A program made the position numbers and the translations under genes. Source: a phage. Taken from it: 64,000 nt of DNA. The stretch lies in sequence record PZ583742.1, one strand, 5' to 3'. The notes under the pieces were generated by a model that saw only the letters and a list, made by a program, of their open reading frames with translations, was not told where the DNA came from and ran no database searches. Shown here piece after piece: positions 16,428-58,787 of this stretch (position 1 is its first letter; every line of letters begins with the position of its first letter).

Positions 16428-16430
16428 ATG
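16416..16430 (+). repeat. repeated gene-junction cassette GAGGAAATCTAAATG (copy 1)
   Basis: Identical 15-mer at 16626-16640; each encodes a C-terminal EEI, the stop, and the next start. Confidence 0.7.
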
Positions 16431-16637
16431 GAAGAGTTTGCTAAAGTAGTTTTTATCGGTTGGTTTGAAAATGATAGCATGTTTACCAAAGAAATCCGCA
16501 TGGATATATCAGACAAAGAGCATATCATGTGGGCGACCATGAGTTTTGCTGAAGTAAATAAAGCATTGGTAAAAGCCTTTGTCAACGATGTGAAAGTGTT
16601 TGAATGTGATTGGCGCAACAAGCCTGAGGAAATCTAA
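16428..16637 (+). CDS. dmd: Dmd-like antitoxin (discriminator of mRNA degradation)
   Basis: KVVFIGWFENDSMFTKEI...AEVNKALVKAF matches T4 Dmd as I recall it; lies next to gene 41 as T4 gene 61.5 does. Confidence 0.55.
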   Translation: MEEFAKVVFIGWFENDSMFTKEIRMDISDKEHIMWATMSFAEVNKALVKAFVNDVKVFECDWRNKPEEI

Positions 16638-16934: not shown

Positions 16935-17228
16935 ATGAAAAAGTTATTAATCGCAGCAATTCTTACCGTAGCATCATGTGGTACAGCTCCAGTTACTGCT
17001 GGACTTGATAAAGACCTTTGTGAGTGGTCTATGACTGCGGACCAGACTGATGTTGAACATCAGATTTATGCCGATATCATGAATATTACTAAACGTGACC
17101 GCCCAGATATGGTTAAAGAAGTATCTGACCAATTGACTTCTGGTGACGTTATGCAGTATAACTATGTTCTGTATTGCGATGCTTCATTTGACAACAGCAA
17201 GATTGTTCAATGGGTTACAGGTGAATAA
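16935..17228 (+). CDS. secreted/lipoprotein-like protein, spackle-like by position and size
   Basis: 97 aa with signal peptide MKKLLIAAILTVASC; position corresponds to T4 sp (61.3). Confidence 0.4.
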   Translation: MKKLLIAAILTVASCGTAPVTAGLDKDLCEWSMTADQTDVEHQIYADIMNITKRDRPDMVKEVSDQLTSGDVMQYNYVLYCDASFDNSKIVQWVTGE

Positions 17229-17229
17229 A

Positions 17230-17667
17230 ATGATTAACAGAAATTTAGTTATCAAAAAACTTCGTTGTAAAAATCCAAATGCACAAGCATACAGGGCGTT
17301 TTGGAGCGACGACCATCAATACCTGGGTTATTTTCTTGTTGATAGTGATGATAGAATTACGTTTGCTCATAAACTTCTTAACAAAGAATTAAACCATTGG
17401 AAAGAACTTATTGCGGTCAAGTCCAAATTATTTTCTTGCAATACAATGCACCAATTGGTTTATTTTTTCGCTGATGGTATTCCTGACAAGGTTGAGTTTG
17501 ACGGGTTTGAATTTAAAGACATCAACCCTGATAATGAATTGAATGACAGTATTGTTAATATGGGTATCCCTGGCAAGTACATCAAAAACAGTCTTTTGAA
17601 AATTCTGGAAACCCCTGTTTATTCAGTTGACGACCAGATTTTTAATGCTTTCATGAAGCGAGATTAA
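17230..17667 (+). CDS. hypothetical protein (145 aa)
   Basis: ATG with GGTGA upstream; C-terminus SVDDQIFNAFMKRD shared with next ORF. Confidence 0.4.
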   Translation: MINRNLVIKKLRCKNPNAQAYRAFWSDDHQYLGYFLVDSDDRITFAHKLLNKELNHWKELIAVKSKLFSCNTMHQLVYFFADGIPDKVEFDGFEFKDINPDNELNDSIVNMGIPGKYIKNSLLKILETPVYSVDDQIFNAFMKRD

Positions 17668-17671
17668 TATG
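17626..17671 (+). repeat. 46-bp direct repeat, copy 1
   Basis: Matches 17978-18023 with 3 mismatches; spans a gene end, stop and next ATG. Confidence 0.8.
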
Positions 17672-18019
17672 AATGATTACAATTTTCTGAATTTTGAACT
17701 GGCGAGCAATAATGATGGTAATGCTCATTATGAATTCCGCGACCCTCGGTTTAATCAGGCGATTGGTTATATTATCGTTAAAGATGATATTATCATAAAG
17801 GCTCGCTCATTCCTGGTAATGAAAGGACCTTATGAAGATACTCGCGGTTATCCGTTTGATAAAAAGAATGTGCGTGATTGCGCCGCCTGGATAACGGGAA
17901 ATCCCAAAATTGGAGTCATGTTATCTGATGAAGCGAACGACATTTTGAATGGGGTAGGCAAAGCTCAAGAACAGTCTGTCGACGACCAGATTTTTAATGC
18001 CTTCATGAAGCGAGGTTAA
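17669..18019 (+). CDS. hypothetical protein (116 aa)
   Basis: Ends with SVDDQIFNAFMKRG, encoded by the second repeat copy. Confidence 0.4.
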   Translation: MNDYNFLNFELASNNDGNAHYEFRDPRFNQAIGYIIVKDDIIIKARSFLVMKGPYEDTRGYPFDKKNVRDCAAWITGNPKIGVMLSDEANDILNGVGKAQEQSVDDQIFNAFMKRG

Positions 18020-18023
18020 TATG
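17978..18023 (+). repeat. 46-bp direct repeat, copy 2
   Basis: See 17626-17671. Confidence 0.8.
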
Positions 18024-18242
18024 TTTGTTTTGACCCAATTCTCTAAAGCAATATATAGTTACTCTTGTCAATGGGAAGTCTTTATTGACACTCCGTCTCC
18101 CAAGTACGGAGTTTTTGGACGAGTAACTACTCAAGCTTACGTTGCTCGACCAACTAAACGCCAGATTCGTAAACTTAAAAAGGCACATCGTCAACTGATT
18201 AAAAGAAGGGAACAATATGAGTGCAATGTGTACGGGCTCTAA
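18021..18242 (+). CDS. hypothetical basic protein (73 aa)
   Basis: PTKRQIRKLKK motif paralogous to ORF 16638-16877. Confidence 0.4.
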   Translation: MFVLTQFSKAIYSYSCQWEVFIDTPSPKYGVFGRVTTQAYVARPTKRQIRKLKKAHRQLIKRREQYECNVYGL

Positions 18243-18408
18243 GATTTCTGTCTTCCAGATTTTTGAAGAATATGAAATCGTATCGCAAGACCAAGAAGCA
18301 ATCCATGTTATCGCTGATGATGGTGTTACCTGGATTATTCCGTTGTATCATGAAGACACTTATGAAGTGACTGATGCAAATGGTGATAAAGCTATCTTCG
18401 TTGTATAA
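18217..18408 (+). CDS. hypothetical acidic protein (63 aa)
   Basis: ATG with AAGGG upstream. Confidence 0.35.
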   Translation: MSAMCTGSKISVFQIFEEYEIVSQDQEAIHVIADDGVTWIIPLYHEDTYEVTDANGDKAIFVV

Positions 18409-18411
18409 ATA
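18404..18411 (+). promoter_or_regulatory. late promoter motif TATAAATA
   Basis: Exact TATAAATA, 17 nt upstream of ATG 18428. Confidence 0.4.
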
Positions 18412-18427
18412 GCGGAAAGGGGGTGTT

Positions 18428-18595
18428 ATGAAAACATTCAAAGATTTTATCAACGAAAATATGGTTGCCGGTGATGCGGGTGGAAACCCAACTAATATCG
18501 CAACAGGTACCACTTCCGGGGCAGTTGTCAATAAAGGCCCTGAACAAATCCCATCAAAAAAGCGTAAGAACAAAGACGATAAACCTACAGTATAA
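18428..18595 (+). CDS. small Gly/Thr-rich protein (55 aa) with basic tail
   Basis: ATG after AAAGGGGG; below the 60-aa ORF-track cutoff. Confidence 0.35.
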   Translation: MKTFKDFINENMVAGDAGGNPTNIATGTTSGAVVNKGPEQIPSKKRKNKDDKPTV

Positions 18596-18613
18596 TGGTC
18601 CTTCGGGGCCATT
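18594..18613 (+). other. UUCG-tetraloop hairpin before gene 61 SD (no T run)
   Basis: AATGGTCC-TTCG-GGGCCATT, 8-bp stem with one G-U pair. Confidence 0.45.
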
Positions 18614-18627
18614 GAAATGAGGAAACT

Positions 18628-19656
18628 ATGTCATATATTGATAAAGAATTTGCAGTCAGAGCTTTATCGTATCAACCACGTTATAGAGAAGTCACCGGGA
18701 GCACATTTAAAGCAAACTGTCGTTGCAAGGTTTGTGGGGACTCCCAGAAAGATTCACACAAGGCTCGATTCTGGGCGTATACTAATCCGACTGATGGCGC
18801 GGTTTACGTGAAATGTTTTAACTGTGACTACTCCACGCATATAAGCAAATACATAAAAGAGTTTGAGCCGGATTTACACCGGGAATATATGGTTGAGAAG
18901 TATAAGGAGAATGCATTTGGGCGACAACGCACTGAAGTTGCAGAAGCTCCGAAAGAACCAGAAAAAACTCCGGTTATTGAGCAGCTTGCTTTTTGTGAAA
19001 GACTCGATACTTTACCAGAAGCACATCCGATAATTAAGTATGTAAAAAGTCGGTGTATTCCGAGCAATGTTTGGAACCGGTTATGGTTTACAAACAAATG
19101 GCCTGCATTAGTTAACTCCGTTAATCCTGGGACGTATAAGAATGAAACGAATGAACCACGCTTGGTTATTCCTATCTTCAACGGCAAAAAAGAAATCGAA
19201 TCTTTCCAAGGACGAGCTCTTCGCAAAGATGCACCACAAAAATATATCACAATCAAAGCTCACCCAGAAGCTTCCAAAGTCTATGGCGTAGACAAGATTG
19301 ATGAGCGTAAACGCGTATGGGTAATGGAAGGTCCAATTGATAGTTTGTTTATCCCTAACAGCATTGCGATAACCGGTGGAACATTAGCATTGGAAGCTGT
19401 TCCTTACCCAGAAACCAGAGTATGGGTGATGGATTCAGAAGCAAGACATCCTGATACGATTAAACGTATGAAGAAATTAGTCGATGCAGGAGAAGCTGTT
19501 ATGTTCTGGGACAACGCACCGTGGCATACGAAAGATATAAATGAAATGATTAAATCGGAAGGAGCAACGCCTGAGCAAATTGAAGCCTATATGAATGATA
19601 ATATTGCACAAGGTTTAATGGCAAAACTTCGATTATCCAAATATGCAAAAATATGA
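18628..19656 (+). CDS. 61: DNA primase gp61
   Basis: Zinc ribbon CRCKVCGDS...CFNCDY; 342 aa; C-terminal LMAKLRLSKYAKI as in T4 gp61. Confidence 0.95.
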   Translation: MSYIDKEFAVRALSYQPRYREVTGSTFKANCRCKVCGDSQKDSHKARFWAYTNPTDGAVYVKCFNCDYSTHISKYIKEFEPDLHREYMVEKYKENAFGRQRTEVAEAPKEPEKTPVIEQLAFCERLDTLPEAHPIIKYVKSRCIPSNVWNRLWFTNKWPALVNSVNPGTYKNETNEPRLVIPIFNGKKEIESFQGRALRKDAPQKYITIKAHPEASKVYGVDKIDERKRVWVMEGPIDSLFIPNSIAITGGTLALEAVPYPETRVWVMDSEARHPDTIKRMKKLVDAGEAVMFWDNAPWHTKDINEMIKSEGATPEQIEAYMNDNIAQGLMAKLRLSKYAKI

Positions 19657-20420
19657 ATTATCTAAAATTATATAATAAATTAATAGACAAAGGCCTCGCA
19701 AGGGGCCTAAACAAAAAGAATATCCCATTTTATACGGAGTCCCATCATATACTACCAAGGTGTTTGGGTGGACCTGACACCGAAGATAATTTGGTATTGT
19801 TATCAGCAAGAGAACATTTTATTGCACATTTGTTACTTTTTAAAATTTATCGACTTTCTAAATTAATGTTTGCTATACACCGGATGTGCGGTGACAAATT
19901 TGATAGCGCAAAATATGAATGGATGCGAAAAGAACATAGTAAAGCCGTTAGTGAACATATGTCAAACTTATGGAGTCAATCCGAGTTTAAAGACAAAATG
20001 TTAATTGCTTTACACAAGCGACATAACGACCACCCTGTGTCTGATAAAACCAAAAGTAAAATAGCTAACTCATTAAAATTGTATTATCAAAATAATCCAG
20101 TTACTGATGAACAACGGCAAAAGAATCGCGATGCACAAATGAGAAGATTTAAAGAAAATCCGCAAACCGAAGAAACGAAAAAGTTGCGGCGAGAAGCATG
20201 CCGAAAGGCAACTGGAACACCGGTTTGTAGATGCGATGAATTTGGTAATATACTTGAAAAGTATAATTCGGGAGCTGAGGCAAAGGAATTATTACAATTG
20301 GCGGGCAATACTCAAAATATATACACAGCTTGTAAAAGAAATAAAAAGACAGGCCGAATGTATAGGTCAAACGGCCATTTTTGGAAGTATCAAGACGAGG
20401 AAGGGATTCCGGTAAAGTAA
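19653..20420 (+). CDS. HNH homing endonuclease with NUMOD-like DNA-binding repeats
   Basis: HNH core ESHHILPRCLGGPDTEDNLVLLSAREHFIAH; basic repeated C-terminal half; ATGA overlap with gene 61 stop. Confidence 0.7.
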   Translation: MNYLKLYNKLIDKGLARGLNKKNIPFYTESHHILPRCLGGPDTEDNLVLLSAREHFIAHLLLFKIYRLSKLMFAIHRMCGDKFDSAKYEWMRKEHSKAVSEHMSNLWSQSEFKDKMLIALHKRHNDHPVSDKTKSKIANSLKLYYQNNPVTDEQRQKNRDAQMRRFKENPQTEETKKLRREACRKATGTPVCRCDEFGNILEKYNSGAEAKELLQLAGNTQNIYTACKRNKKTGRMYRSNGHFWKYQDEEGIPVK

Positions 20421-21961: not shown

Positions 21962-21966
21962 TTATA

Positions 21967-21989
21967 GGGAACCTTCGGGTTCCCTTTTT
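21967..21989 (+). terminator. intrinsic terminator (UUCG tetraloop)
   Basis: GGGAACC-TTCG-GGTTCCC then TTTTT. Confidence 0.6.
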
Positions 21990-32073: not shown

Positions 32074-33906
32074 ATGATTGAAAATAAAATTGAAATGCTT
32101 TCAGATAAAGACCATTGTTTGAAACGTCCGGGAATGTACATCGGAAGTGTTTCATATGAAGAATACGAAAGATTTTTATTTGGTGAGTATACTAAAGTAT
32201 CTTATGTGGCGGGTGTATTAAAACTAGTTGATGAGATTATCGACAACTCGGTTGATGAAGCTATACGTACAAATTTCAAATTTGCCAATAAAATTTCCGT
32301 TGATATCTCTTTGACTGATAACAAAGTTACTGTTGAAGATAATGGTCGTGGTATTCCGCAGGCTGTTGTCATAACTCCAGAAGGTGAAGAATTACCTGGC
32401 CCTGTAGCGGCCTGGACGAAAACCAAAGCGGGTGGGAATTTCGGTGATGATAAAGAACGTGTAACCGGCGGCCAGAATGGTGTTGGTTCAAGTCTTACCA
32501 ATATTTTTTCAATCCTTTTTACTGGGACCACATCTGACGGTAAAAATGAGCTTCGTGTAAGTTGTTCAAATAATGCCGATAATGTATCATGGAAAACCAA
32601 ACCAACCAAATCCAATGGTACCAAGGTTGAGTTTATTCCAGACTTTAGTCATTTTGAAATGAACAGTTTTGATAAAATTTATCTGGATATTACACTTGAC
32701 CGTCTGCAGACTCTTGCTGTTGTTTATCCTGATATTGAATTCAAATTCAATGGTAAAAAGGTACAAGGTCAGTTTAAAAAGTTTGCTAAACAATATGATG
32801 ATGAAATCATTATCCAGGAACAAGATAATTGCTCAATTGCAATCGGTCGGTCACCTGACGGATTCAGACATCTGACATATGTCAACAACATCCACACAAA
32901 AAATGGTGGACACCATATTGAATGCGTTATGGATGAAATGTGTGATGTGTTAATCCCGGCGATTAAACGCAAGTATAAAATTGAAGTAACCAAAGCACGC
33001 GTTAAAGAATGTATTACATTGTTGATGTTTATTCGCAATATGAAGAACATGCGATTTGATTCCCAGACCAAGGAGCGATTGACTTCCACTGCCGGTGAAA
33101 TTAAATCACATATCCAGGTCAATGGCAAAAAGTTAGCTGGTTCGTTGTTAAAATCAGAAGCTATTCTGACGCCTATCATTGAAGCTGCATTGGCTCGTAA
33201 ATTGGCTGCAGAGAAAGCAGCAGAGACTAAAGCAAATAAGAAAGCTTCAAAGGCCAAGGTACAAAAGCATATCAAAGCCAACGAATGGGGTAATGATAAG
33301 CTGGAAACGACTCTATTCCTGACCGAAGGAGATTCTGCAACGGGTCCGTTTATCAAGGTTCGTGACCGTGAATTGCAAGGTGCTTATCCGTTACGTGGTA
33401 AGTTTAAAAACACATGGGGTCTGAAAGCTGTTGAAGTTATGAAGAACGCTGAAGCCTTTGATGTGTGTGCGATTACTGGTTTAACGATTGGACAACCGGC
33501 CGAGAATATGAATTACCGAAACATTGCTATCATGACAGATGCGGATGTGGATGGTGTTGGTAGTATCTATCCATCGTTATTGGCGTTTTTCAGTAACTGG
33601 CCAGAGCTGTTCCATGAAGGACGAATTCGCTTTGTGAAAACTCCTGTTATTATTGCACAGCTCAAAGATAAACAAGAATGGTTCTATTCTCTTCCTGATT
33701 ACGAAGAAGCTAAGGATAAACTTCCGAAGCATACCATTCGATATATCAAGGGGCTTGGTTCTCTGGAAGATTCAGAGTACAAACGCGTATTGCTCGAGCC
33801 AGTATTCGAAGTTGTTCAATTGCCCGACAATTGGAAAGAACTGTTCGAAATGCTATTCGGTAAAGATTCCCAGCAGCGTAAAGACTGGATGAATGCGACG
33901 CTATAA
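32074..33906 (+). CDS. 39: DNA topoisomerase II large subunit (gp39 with the gene-60 part contiguous)
   Basis: GyrB-like ATPase N-terminus, TOPRIM LTEGDSATGP; single 610-aa frame. Confidence 0.9.
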   Translation: MIENKIEMLSDKDHCLKRPGMYIGSVSYEEYERFLFGEYTKVSYVAGVLKLVDEIIDNSVDEAIRTNFKFANKISVDISLTDNKVTVEDNGRGIPQAVVITPEGEELPGPVAAWTKTKAGGNFGDDKERVTGGQNGVGSSLTNIFSILFTGTTSDGKNELRVSCSNNADNVSWKTKPTKSNGTKVEFIPDFSHFEMNSFDKIYLDITLDRLQTLAVVYPDIEFKFNGKKVQGQFKKFAKQYDDEIIIQEQDNCSIAIGRSPDGFRHLTYVNNIHTKNGGHHIECVMDEMCDVLIPAIKRKYKIEVTKARVKECITLLMFIRNMKNMRFDSQTKERLTSTAGEIKSHIQVNGKKLAGSLLKSEAILTPIIEAALARKLAAEKAAETKANKKASKAKVQKHIKANEWGNDKLETTLFLTEGDSATGPFIKVRDRELQGAYPLRGKFKNTWGLKAVEVMKNAEAFDVCAITGLTIGQPAENMNYRNIAIMTDADVDGVGSIYPSLLAFFSNWPELFHEGRIRFVKTPVIIAQLKDKQEWFYSLPDYEEAKDKLPKHTIRYIKGLGSLEDSEYKRVLLEPVFEVVQLPDNWKELFEMLFGKDSQQRKDWMNATL

Positions 33907-33909
33907 ATA
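33902..33909 (+). promoter_or_regulatory. late promoter motif TATAAATA
   Basis: Exact TATAAATA overlapping the gene 39 stop. Confidence 0.35.
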
Positions 33910-33912
33910 GAT

Positions 33913-33932
33913 ACGGGAGAATATTCTCCCGT
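33913..33932 (+). other. 20-bp perfect palindrome
   Basis: ACGGGAGAAT|ATTCTCCCGT, no T run. Confidence 0.6.
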
Positions 33933-33948
33933 CTTATAGGAGAAGTCC

Positions 33949-34101
33949 ATGAAAAAGTGGTGGGTTACGTTGTCAAATGGCGAATACGGTTATCTGTGGG
34001 CCGAGACTAAACCTCTGTTTGCATCCTTTGTCACCATTATGTGCGAGACCTGGGATGGTGAATACTATACCGCATATGGGCAAGTCTATAAAGTTGAGTA
34101 G
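33949..34101 (+). CDS. hypothetical small protein (50 aa)
   Basis: AGGAG SD then ATG; Trp/Tyr-rich. Confidence 0.35.
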   Translation: MKKWWVTLSNGEYGYLWAETKPLFASFVTIMCETWDGEYYTAYGQVYKVE

Positions 34102-58122: not shown

Positions 58123-58787
58123 TTACGATTCGCATGCCTCCAAATAACAACCGATATATAAATGGTAAATCAGTATACCAACTGTACTTATCCATCAAAC
58201 AGCATTTTTCGGGTCGTTATGATATTATCAAATATAACTGGACCATGCGAATCTCCGATAGTGCTTATCAAAAACGTCGCGATAAGTATTTTTTCGAAAA
58301 GCTTAGCGATAAGTACACTCTTAAAGAATTAACGTTAATATTCATGTCAAACCTGGTTGCAAACCAGGATGCATGGATAGGCGATATAAGTGATGCCGAT
58401 GCTCTGATATTTTATAGAGAATACATTGGCCGACTTAAAAGAATTAGACAAGTATACGAAGATGATATAAAGAACATCTATTACTTCAGTAAGAAAGTCG
58501 AAGTCAAATCGCTCCAAGAGATTTTCGAGTATAATACTAAAGTGAATACAAGTTATATTTTCAAACTTCTCCAATCGAATGTTATCTCATTTGAAACGTT
58601 TTGTTTGCTTGATTCATTTTTAGGTATTATAAATAAACATGATGAACAGACTAACGACTTGGTTTGGGAAAAGTATTCAACCAAACTAAATGCCTATAAG
58701 AAAATCTTAAATATAGATTCTCTTGAAGCTCGTAAATTGTTCATCGAGACCGTTAAAAACTGTCAAATAACGCTTCAATCACTTTGA
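58119..58787 (+). CDS. 59: helicase loader gp59
   Basis: RYINGKSVYQLYL...ANQDAWIGDISDADAL match T4 gp59; 222 aa. Confidence 0.92.
   Translation: MITIRMPPNNNRYINGKSVYQLYLSIKQHFSGRYDIIKYNWTMRISDSAYQKRRDKYFFEKLSDKYTLKELTLIFMSNLVANQDAWIGDISDADALIFYREYIGRLKRIRQVYEDDIKNIYYFSKKVEVKSLQEIFEYNTKVNTSYIFKLLQSNVISFETFCLLDSFLGIINKHDEQTNDLVWEKYSTKLNAYKKILNIDSLEARKLFIETVKNCQITLQSL

Follow-up and report, generated by a model that had tools for sequence, protein, structure and literature searches.

Gene 61.1 of a VR7-like T4-type phage: a conserved late-promoter motif and a small product, probably head-associated, that resembles the gp23 maturation region

Here we describe gene 61.1 of the phage sequence PZ583742.1; the window referred to below is the whole 64,000-nucleotide (nt) stretch of that record. 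Region 17600-19700 of the window matches Escherichia phage DK-13 at 96.6% identity and VR20, SP18 and VR7 at 92-94%; these three, like DK-13, belong to the genus Gaprivervirus (Tevenvirinae). Judged by these identities, the source phage is a VR7-like T4-type phage of this genus. The + strand of the window is the strand bearing 41, dmd, sp, 61.2, 61.1, 61, 56 and soc, and the gene that 61.1 immediately precedes, here as in most lineages examined, is primase gene 61. The features of the locus, including open reading frames (ORFs, with lengths in amino acids, aa) and Shine-Dalgarno (SD) sequences, are as follows.

18217..18408, + strand: upstream ORF, 63 aa, RB69 ORF033c-like (phrog_3249)
18404..18411, + strand: exact T4-type late promoter motif TATAAATA, positions -13 to -6 (from the sequence)
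18417..18423, + strand: predicted 5' end of the late transcript and SD (AAGGGGG), the start point being deduced from the sequence
18428..18595, + strand: gene 61.1 ortholog, 55 aa plus stop (phrog_1823, E 6.6e-32, residues 1-52)
18428..18457, + strand: codons 1-10, MKTFKDFINE, a leader resembling a capsid targeting sequence, with a putative gp21 site I-N-E/N (sequence match)
18458..18541, + strand: codons 11-38, NMVAGDAGGNPTNIATGTTSGAVVNKGP, similar to the N-terminus of mature gp23 (gp23*, T4 residues 66-93; BLASTP, profile, hhalign)
18554..18583, + strand: codons 43-52, SKKRKNKDDK, Lys/Arg-rich tail (sequence and family alignment)
18591..18596, + strand: TATAAT overlapping the 61.1 stop, a speculative candidate -10 element (from the sequence)
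18593..18614, + strand: hairpin with a 9-bp stem and a c(UUCG)g tetraloop (fold prediction)
18619..18630, + strand: gene 61 SD GAGG (18619-18622) and ATG (18628) (sequence and primase match)

The 61.1 ORF runs from the ATG at 18428 to the TAA at 18593-18595 and encodes MKTFKDFINENMVAGDAGGNPTNIATGTTSGAVVNKGPEQIPSKKRKNKDDKPTV; the gene that follows encodes a 342-aa primase (phrog_47, E 1.6e-93). The significant full-length match to phrog_1823, together with the synteny upstream of primase gene 61, assigns the product to the gp61.1 family, and on this evidence the 55-aa ORF is orthologous to gene 61.1 of T4, a name already carried by its counterparts in the VR7, SP18, IME08, RB69 and RB43 records. 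The T4 gene product (NP_049649, 54 aa) resembles it in its position upstream of gene 61 and in its length, with 70% identity, and shares the MKTFKEF start, the MVAGDxGGNP...GTTSGAVVNKGPEQIP core and the basic/charged tail. T4 differs in its upstream neighbour, 61.2, whose stop lies 1 nt before the 61.1 start. Homologs of 61.1 were found by tblastn in 1459 phage records, from phages of Escherichia, Klebsiella, Shigella, Aeromonas, Acinetobacter and others. The ratio of nonsynonymous to synonymous variation (pN/pS) of 0.11-0.24, obtained against Dhakavirus, a T4-like lineage and another lineage, indicates that 61.1 is a real gene under purifying selection, and the conservation rules out a spurious ORF. 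A 137-aa antisense ORF (18199-18612, minus strand) covers the whole unit; conservation and pN/pS track the + frame, and this ORF is regarded as a by-product. In the literature, 61.1 has been catalogued as a conserved ORF without function (PMC1524935), and lists of conserved ORFs are the only mentions of 61.1 or gp61.1 that we found.

The original prediction placed an exact TATAAATA motif ahead of this 55-aa ORF, and both are present, at 18404-18411 and 18428-18595. The motif ends 16 nt ahead of the 61.1 ATG; the predicted transcript would start at about 18417 and carry a leader of 11 nt with the SD at its very 5' end. Seven copies of TATAAATA were found in the window against 4.9 expected, with at least seven in 16 of 100 shuffles, and the octamer count alone is not enriched. 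The placement of the copies is not random, because six of the seven stand 16-39 nt upstream of an ORF start, four of them 18-35 nt ahead of genes of the classical late type (soc-, holin t-, gp36- and gp34/37-like). The remaining copies precede 61.1, a 50-aa ORF and, at 58628, no ORF.

For comparison, the region upstream of each 61.1 start was inspected in 66 loci encoding relatives and in annotated records, and these regions were dereplicated to 33 lineages; the upstreams of other SD-preceded genes in the same loci served as the control. A TAAATA core was identified at -45 to -9 of the 61.1 start in 20 of the 33 lineages, by itself or within TATAAATA or the known variants (A/T)ATAAATA and CTAAATA, and its distance from the start is 18-33 nt. 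Only two of 88 control starts had it, one being a 61.1 gene missed by the filter (about 1/87). The full TATAAATA is retained in Gaprivervirus (-24), Dhakavirus (-21), Klebsiella/Enterobacter-type contigs of about 175 kb (-21) and two other lineages (-32 and -35). The variants AATAAATA, CATAAATA and GATAAATA stand upstream of 61.1 in Klebsiella, Erwinia-type, Acinetobacter and other lineages, and CTAAATA, the Aeh1-type late consensus, is found in three more. Position -13 of the late consensus is known to be poorly conserved, and CTAAATA has been described (Nolan 2006, PMC1524935). The predicted start, 6 nt past the motif, falls 0-3 nt before the SD in nearly all lineages, and the holin t-like gene of the window has the same compact spacing (18 nt). 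The motif is missing in T4-like and RB43-like phages; T4 and its close relatives have TATGAATA instead, and their reading frames abut.

One alternative, which we regard as improbable, is that TATAAATA is no working promoter here and is a by-product of A/T-rich sequence before the ribosome-binding site and of the stop codon of the 63-aa upstream ORF, whose TAA (18406-18408) falls within the motif. The accompanying proposal that 61.1 owes its transcription solely to early or middle promoters further upstream, as it does in T4, is to our mind just as unlikely. The chance-level octamer count, the copy at 58628 without an ORF, and T4, with its missing motif and early 61.1 RNA, are consistent with this alternative. 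So is the transcriptional context: promoters of the early type were found upstream of the gene, at about 16.06 and 18.03 kb, and since no terminator stands between them and 61.1, early read-through into the gene is expected. Against the alternative, the TAAATA core persists in front of 61.1 at the frequency given above, far from that of the controls, although the flanks are unrelated and the upstream genes differ; the spacing from motif to SD is constant; and the octamer is essentially sufficient in T4, both in vitro and in vivo, as established by work summarised in PMC1524935. From the conservation of the motif core across lineages we conclude that the late promoter of 61.1, as read from sequence, is an ancestral and widely retained feature, and it is probably active in the phage of the window. 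The proposed late promoter has thus gained comparative support, and T4 remains the exception to it. The promoter is of an already known type, the T4 late promoter dependent on gp55, gp33 and gp45; a conserved late promoter of 61.1 outside T4 was not found in the literature searched.

The unit may also stand alone. In several lineages (L022, L027, L072 and L075-L077) a hairpin with a U-run directly follows 61.1, and because this is a true terminator, 61.1 can be monocistronic. A closely similar unit lies 3 kb downstream in the same window, embedded in the early 61-56-soc region: soc has TATAAATA (21689), a small ORF (77 aa, 21728) and a hairpin with a UUCG loop (21966-21985), and differs from 61.1 in its 31-nt leader and in the U-run after its hairpin, which makes the latter a true terminator. 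Soc is a proven outer-capsid decoration protein. With this unit at hand, and with the internal-protein genes of T-even phages also located in early regions, the view that a late gene among early genes is unusual was overstated. Elsewhere in the window (33902-34100), TATAAATA is followed by a perfect hairpin (GGGAGAATATTCTCCC) and by the 50-aa ORF, which begins at 33949; this is a candidate small late gene.

The product of 61.1 is Gly/Thr-rich with a basic tail (SKKRKNKDDK), as had been noted before, and its 55 residues fall into three parts, namely the leader, a gp23-like segment and the tail. The leader closely resembles those of the internal proteins (IPs). In T4, IPII and IPIII begin with MKTYQEFIAE/A and IPI with MKTFKEF..., and the IP-like genes of VR7 start with MKTYQEFINE (ip6, ORF153c), MKTYQEFITE (ip10, ORF127c) or MKTFNELFNE (ip9). 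IPIII is annotated as a precursor from which residues -10 to -1 are removed (GenBank X04567). The targeting information of its leader resides in residues 4 and 7 and the processing information in residues 8 and 10 (PMC9026906, a review of Black's work). In gp61.1, F4 and F7 match the targeting determinants, and I8 and E10 match the processing determinants. When a regular expression for the leader was run over the 64-kb window, gp61.1 was the sole hit; in 50 kb of VR7, all hits were IP-cluster genes. The first 22 nt of T4 61.1 (L002 3110-3131, minus strand) and of ipI (L012 858-879, minus strand) are identical, ATGAAAACATTTAAAGAATTTA; this identity suggests that the leader cassette was exchanged between the two genes by recombination. 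Since gp23 has F59, F62, L63 and E65 at the equivalent positions, the leaders of gp61.1, the internal proteins and gp23 share one pattern. Recognition of the 61.1 leader as a capsid targeting sequence was not found in the literature searched.

The likeness to the internal proteins (T4 IPI-III; VR7 Ip6, Ip7, Ip9 and Ip10) goes beyond the common leader, MKT[YF]x[ED]F[IL]xE. They too are small and encoded in early regions, and VR7 ip9, like 61.1 of the window, has TATAAATA directly upstream. They differ in their cargo, which is a globular anti-restriction domain in the internal proteins and a copy of the gp23 N-arm in gp61.1. They are also hypervariable, whereas the gp61.1 family is conserved across the T4 superfamily, and for gp61.1 packaging is a prediction from sequence.

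The body of gp61.1 is homologous to the major capsid protein's maturation region. Residues 2-46 align with T4 gp23 residues 57-101 at 44% identity (BLASTP E 2e-10), and VR7 gp23 residues 55-99 align with gp61.1 with an E value of 1e-9. A profile of 30 family members was searched against all PDB sequences, and gp23 chains alone gave significant matches (E 1.6e-8, gp23 residues 41-100); hhalign of the gp61.1 family against gp23 gave a probability of 96.8%. The similarity, 42-46% identity over 37-45 residues, extends across the cleavage site: E10/N11 of gp61.1 is aligned onto the gp23 maturation site E65/A66, and the Glu of this column is nearly invariant across the gp61.1 family. The core common to both proteins is [ED]x[VI][AG]GDxG..NI[AS]xGxT[ST]GAV...GP. 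In gp23, residues 66-105 of the mature protein are flexible and face the scaffold in the unexpanded head, and they form the external N-arm and N-fist after expansion (PMC9546572). The similarity stops at about residue 95-101 of gp23, where gp61.1 instead has its Lys/Arg-rich C-terminal tail, which is present in every family member. The T4 proteins gp68 and gp22 were considered as further relatives, and hhalign with the gp61.1 family was not significant. Only gp23 residues 41-101 align, and the HK97-fold body with its A, P and I domains is absent; gp61.1 itself is not a capsid protein, and automated names such as 'major capsid domain-containing protein', although they reflect the gp23 homology, are misleading for this reason. 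In the literature searched, no recognition was found that the body of 61.1 is homologous to the maturation site and N-arm of gp23. The suggestion that the product might be a virion or packaging-associated peptide thus receives independent sequence support from the leader match and the gp23 homology, packaging itself remaining a prediction.

The family occurs in two forms. Tequatro-, Gapriver- and Dhakavirus and some Klebsiella/Enterobacter phages carry the short form (52-56 aa). In most other genera a long form is found (123-187 aa, typically about 155 aa), whose C-terminus is the same module, placed after L/I/M-x-E. AlphaFold predicts a confident helical domain of about 100 residues at the N-terminus of the long form (mean predicted local distance difference test score of the whole model, 66.8) and predicts the gp23-homologous segment to be disordered. 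Foldseek of this model against the PDB gave no match (best E 2.8), and hhalign found no alignment between the N-domain and gp23 residues 1-53, which had been considered as its counterpart. Neither form has a match in Pfam or NCBIfam, and every PHROG family matched by them is labelled 'unknown function'. The helical N-domain (phrog_2086/18642) belongs to a large phage family with 1982 clusters at E <= 0.001. In distant phages its C-terminal cargo varies, with ParB-like domains or extremely basic tails, and its genes usually adjoin a DUF7207 gene in replication and nucleotide-metabolism modules. In the RB69 RefSeq sequence (L006 305-771, 467 nt), ORF032c and a 92-aa gp61.1 lie in two frames, while RB69-like contigs carry one intact 155-aa long-form ORF of 468 nt; the split in the RB69 reference is likely a frameshift or a sequencing error, to judge from this comparison.

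At the downstream end of the unit, the UUCG hairpin said to abut the gene 61 SD is indeed there, at 18593-18614, 4 nt from the GAGG. Its arms, UAAUGGUCC-UUCG-GGGCCAUUG, contain one internal and one terminal U.G pair among the 9 bp, with GGUCC-UUCG-GGGCC forming a UNCG-type tetraloop hairpin, and the 5' arm includes the stop codon of 61.1. The minimum free energy of the 56-nt context is -13.7 kcal/mol (z = -2.2), and equally good folds occurred in 6 of 200 shuffles. The UUCG loop is peculiar to the window; the same stem carries UCCG in VR7, VR20 and VR25, and UCUG in another relative. A stem-loop just past the 61.1 stop is found in most lineages, except T4-like and RB43-like phages; in T4 there is no hairpin, and the 61.1 stop lies 2 nt ahead of the gene 61 ATG. 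Stem sequences differ among lineages (GGUCC/GGGCC, GGCUCUA/UAGAGCC, GGCCUUA/UAAGGCC, AUGGAACC/GGUUCCAU and others), so it is the structure that is conserved and not the sequence. Hairpins of the C(UUCG)G type are said to have been described in T4 mRNAs by Tuerk and colleagues in 1988. The hairpin of the window resembles these in its c(UUCG)g loop, G+C-rich stem and intercistronic position, and the 61.1 family differs from them in keeping the position of the stem while the loop varies (UCCG, UCUG or unrelated).

In the window the hairpin is followed by AAAUGAGG, which holds no U-run, and it is therefore not a canonical Rho-independent terminator; a terminator scan did not call it, though it did call the soc terminator. 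The hairpin is probably no strong terminator and acts instead as a 3' stabiliser, a pause site or a barrier between cistrons. The TATAAT across the 61.1 stop has a counterpart in many genera (loci L016-L076), where TGATATAATGG, an extended -10-like sequence, covers the stop and the 5' arm of the hairpin. Either sequence may be a -10 element for gene 61, judging by its resemblance to one. No -35 element or MotA box for the TATAAT was found in the window, and a full promoter at this site was unsupported by a sigma-70 scan. In the predicted fold, CCUAC (18585-18589) is able to reach around the hairpin and pair with the SD of gene 61 (UGAGG), a pairing which suggests that translation of the primase may depend on ribosomes completing 61.1.

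This pairing also bears on another explanation, in which the late promoter mainly serves late synthesis of primase and 61.1 is a leader ORF whose translation opens the hairpin and the gene 61 SD. The predicted pairing is in line with such coupling, as are the position of 61.1 immediately upstream of the primase in most lineages and the expectation that late transcripts, meeting no U-run at the hairpin, would run into gene 61. We nevertheless consider this explanation very improbable, since a full terminator separates 61.1 from 61 in several lineages and T4 has no hairpin at all. Moreover, a mere leader ORF would need neither the purifying selection seen on the peptide nor its strong conservation, which reaches from coliphages to phages of Acinetobacter and Aeromonas and those of KVP40 size.

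Our preferred interpretation, to which we give about an even chance on the sequence features above, is that gp61.1 is a small head peptide, expressed late (and also early), targeted to the prohead and processed by gp21. The motifs, homologies, conservation and purifying selection are established, and from them we infer an active promoter, a product that is packaged and cleaved, and whatever role it has within the head. The expression unit would consist of a gp55-type late promoter, a minimal leader starting at the SD, the 55-codon ORF and a closing stem-loop before the primase gene, and 61.1 would also be read through from early promoters, like the internal-protein genes. Made during head assembly, gp61.1 would be carried by its leader into the scaffolding core of the prohead. 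There gp21 would cut at I-N-E/N and release a 45-residue peptide with the new N-terminus NMVAGDAGGNPTNIATGTTSGAVVNK, the equivalent T4 peptide being DMVAGDSGGNPENISIGTTSGAVVNK. The trimmed peptide may stay in the head, its gp23-like arm occupying sites to which gp23 N-arms or the scaffold bind and its basic tail resting against the DNA, and it could be injected like other internal proteins. Taken together, gp61.1 is probably an unrecognised head-associated peptide.

Several observations weigh against this interpretation. T4 has TATGAATA in place of TATAAATA, and in T4 the 61.1 RNA was classed as early and the protein was undetected (Wolfram-Schauerte 2022, Table S2). The TTAAATA of RB69-like lineages deviates at -12 from the late consensus, and the 11-nt leader of the predicted late transcript is short. 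The P1' residue would be Asn, Asp or Glu in the gp61.1 family and is Ala, Ser or Thr in internal proteins. The long form (phrog_2086) has no N-terminal targeting leader, and the genomic context of its N-domain would fit a DNA- or replication-related role equally well. In the text and the supplements examined of a paper with mass spectrometry of T4 head proteins (PMC5694885), 61.1 is missing, and no gp61.1 homolog was found in virion and infection proteomics of T4, SPN3US/T4 heads and DLP phages. The gene lies between 41 and 61, away from the hypervariable ip loci near denV/e or 57B; the ip genes of VR7 are at 56.7-57.6 kb and 67.9-69.5 kb. It is located outside the ip cluster and among counter-defence genes, namely dmd, spackle and an AdfA-like ORF.

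In the 41-61 interval of the window, dmd occupies 16428-16637 and spackle 16935-17228. The adjacent ORFs 17230-17667 and 17669-18019 both terminate in VDDQIFNAFMKR[DG], and the second weakly matches AdfA of Pfam (anti-DarT factor; T4 61.2). These two ORFs, together with dmd and spackle, mark the interval as a counter-defence cluster. Between primase gene 61 and gene 56, a 255-aa ORF resembling an HNH-type homing endonuclease (19653-20420) looks like a mobile insertion, because it is absent from this site in VR7 and annotated in DK-13 and RZ.

The counter-defence neighbours favour a further explanation, possible though doubtful in our view, in which the late promoter is real and gp61.1 stays in the cytoplasm, where in soluble form it imitates the N-terminus of gp23 together with its cleavage site. 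Produced at the time when gp23 and gp21 appear, it could compete for something that this segment binds, be it gp21 itself, the scaffold, a chaperone, a translation factor, or a host immune sensor that responds to capsid protein or to the activity of the protease. The extension of the gp23 homology across the cleavage site, the predicted disorder of the gp23-like segment and the long forms without the targeting leader are likewise consistent with a mimic. Immunity is known to be triggered both by the activity of the prohead protease, through a protease-sensing cyclic oligonucleotide-based antiphage signalling system (CBASS; PMC12991175), and by capsid protein, through Lit/Gol (PMC3014915). On the other hand, the short-form leader matches all four packaging determinants and in T4 shares the 22-nt identity with ipI, features which a pure decoy would not need, and no defence phenotype is known. 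Within gene 23, the Gol site presumably maps at roughly one quarter of the length, which is downstream of the segment homologous to gp61.1. We consider it unlikely that gp61.1, across the whole superfamily, imitates the maturation site and N-arm of gp23 as a late decoy or competitor. A similarly low likelihood is assigned to the more specific proposal of a decoy for gp21, which would curb off-target cytoplasmic cleavage sensed by CBASS, or for a host sensor of the gp23 N-terminus.

For the T4-type phages, 61.1 matters as one of the few small ORFs conserved among them, in phages of enterobacteria, Acinetobacter and Aeromonas and in KVP40-size contigs. The head-peptide interpretation predicts a defined late start, entry into the prohead by the shared leader, a gp21 cut after Glu10 and a 45-residue copy of the gp23 arm. 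If the decoy explanation were true, it would add a new anti-defence class, the 'capsid decoy', among dmd, spackle and adfA. The misleading database name 'major capsid protein' for the gp61.1 family is corrected here. Should the predictions prove right, the T4 head would contain a component not yet listed, or the phage would possess a decoy that mimics the capsid, and the targeting leader and the end of the gp23 propeptide would be one recognition motif.

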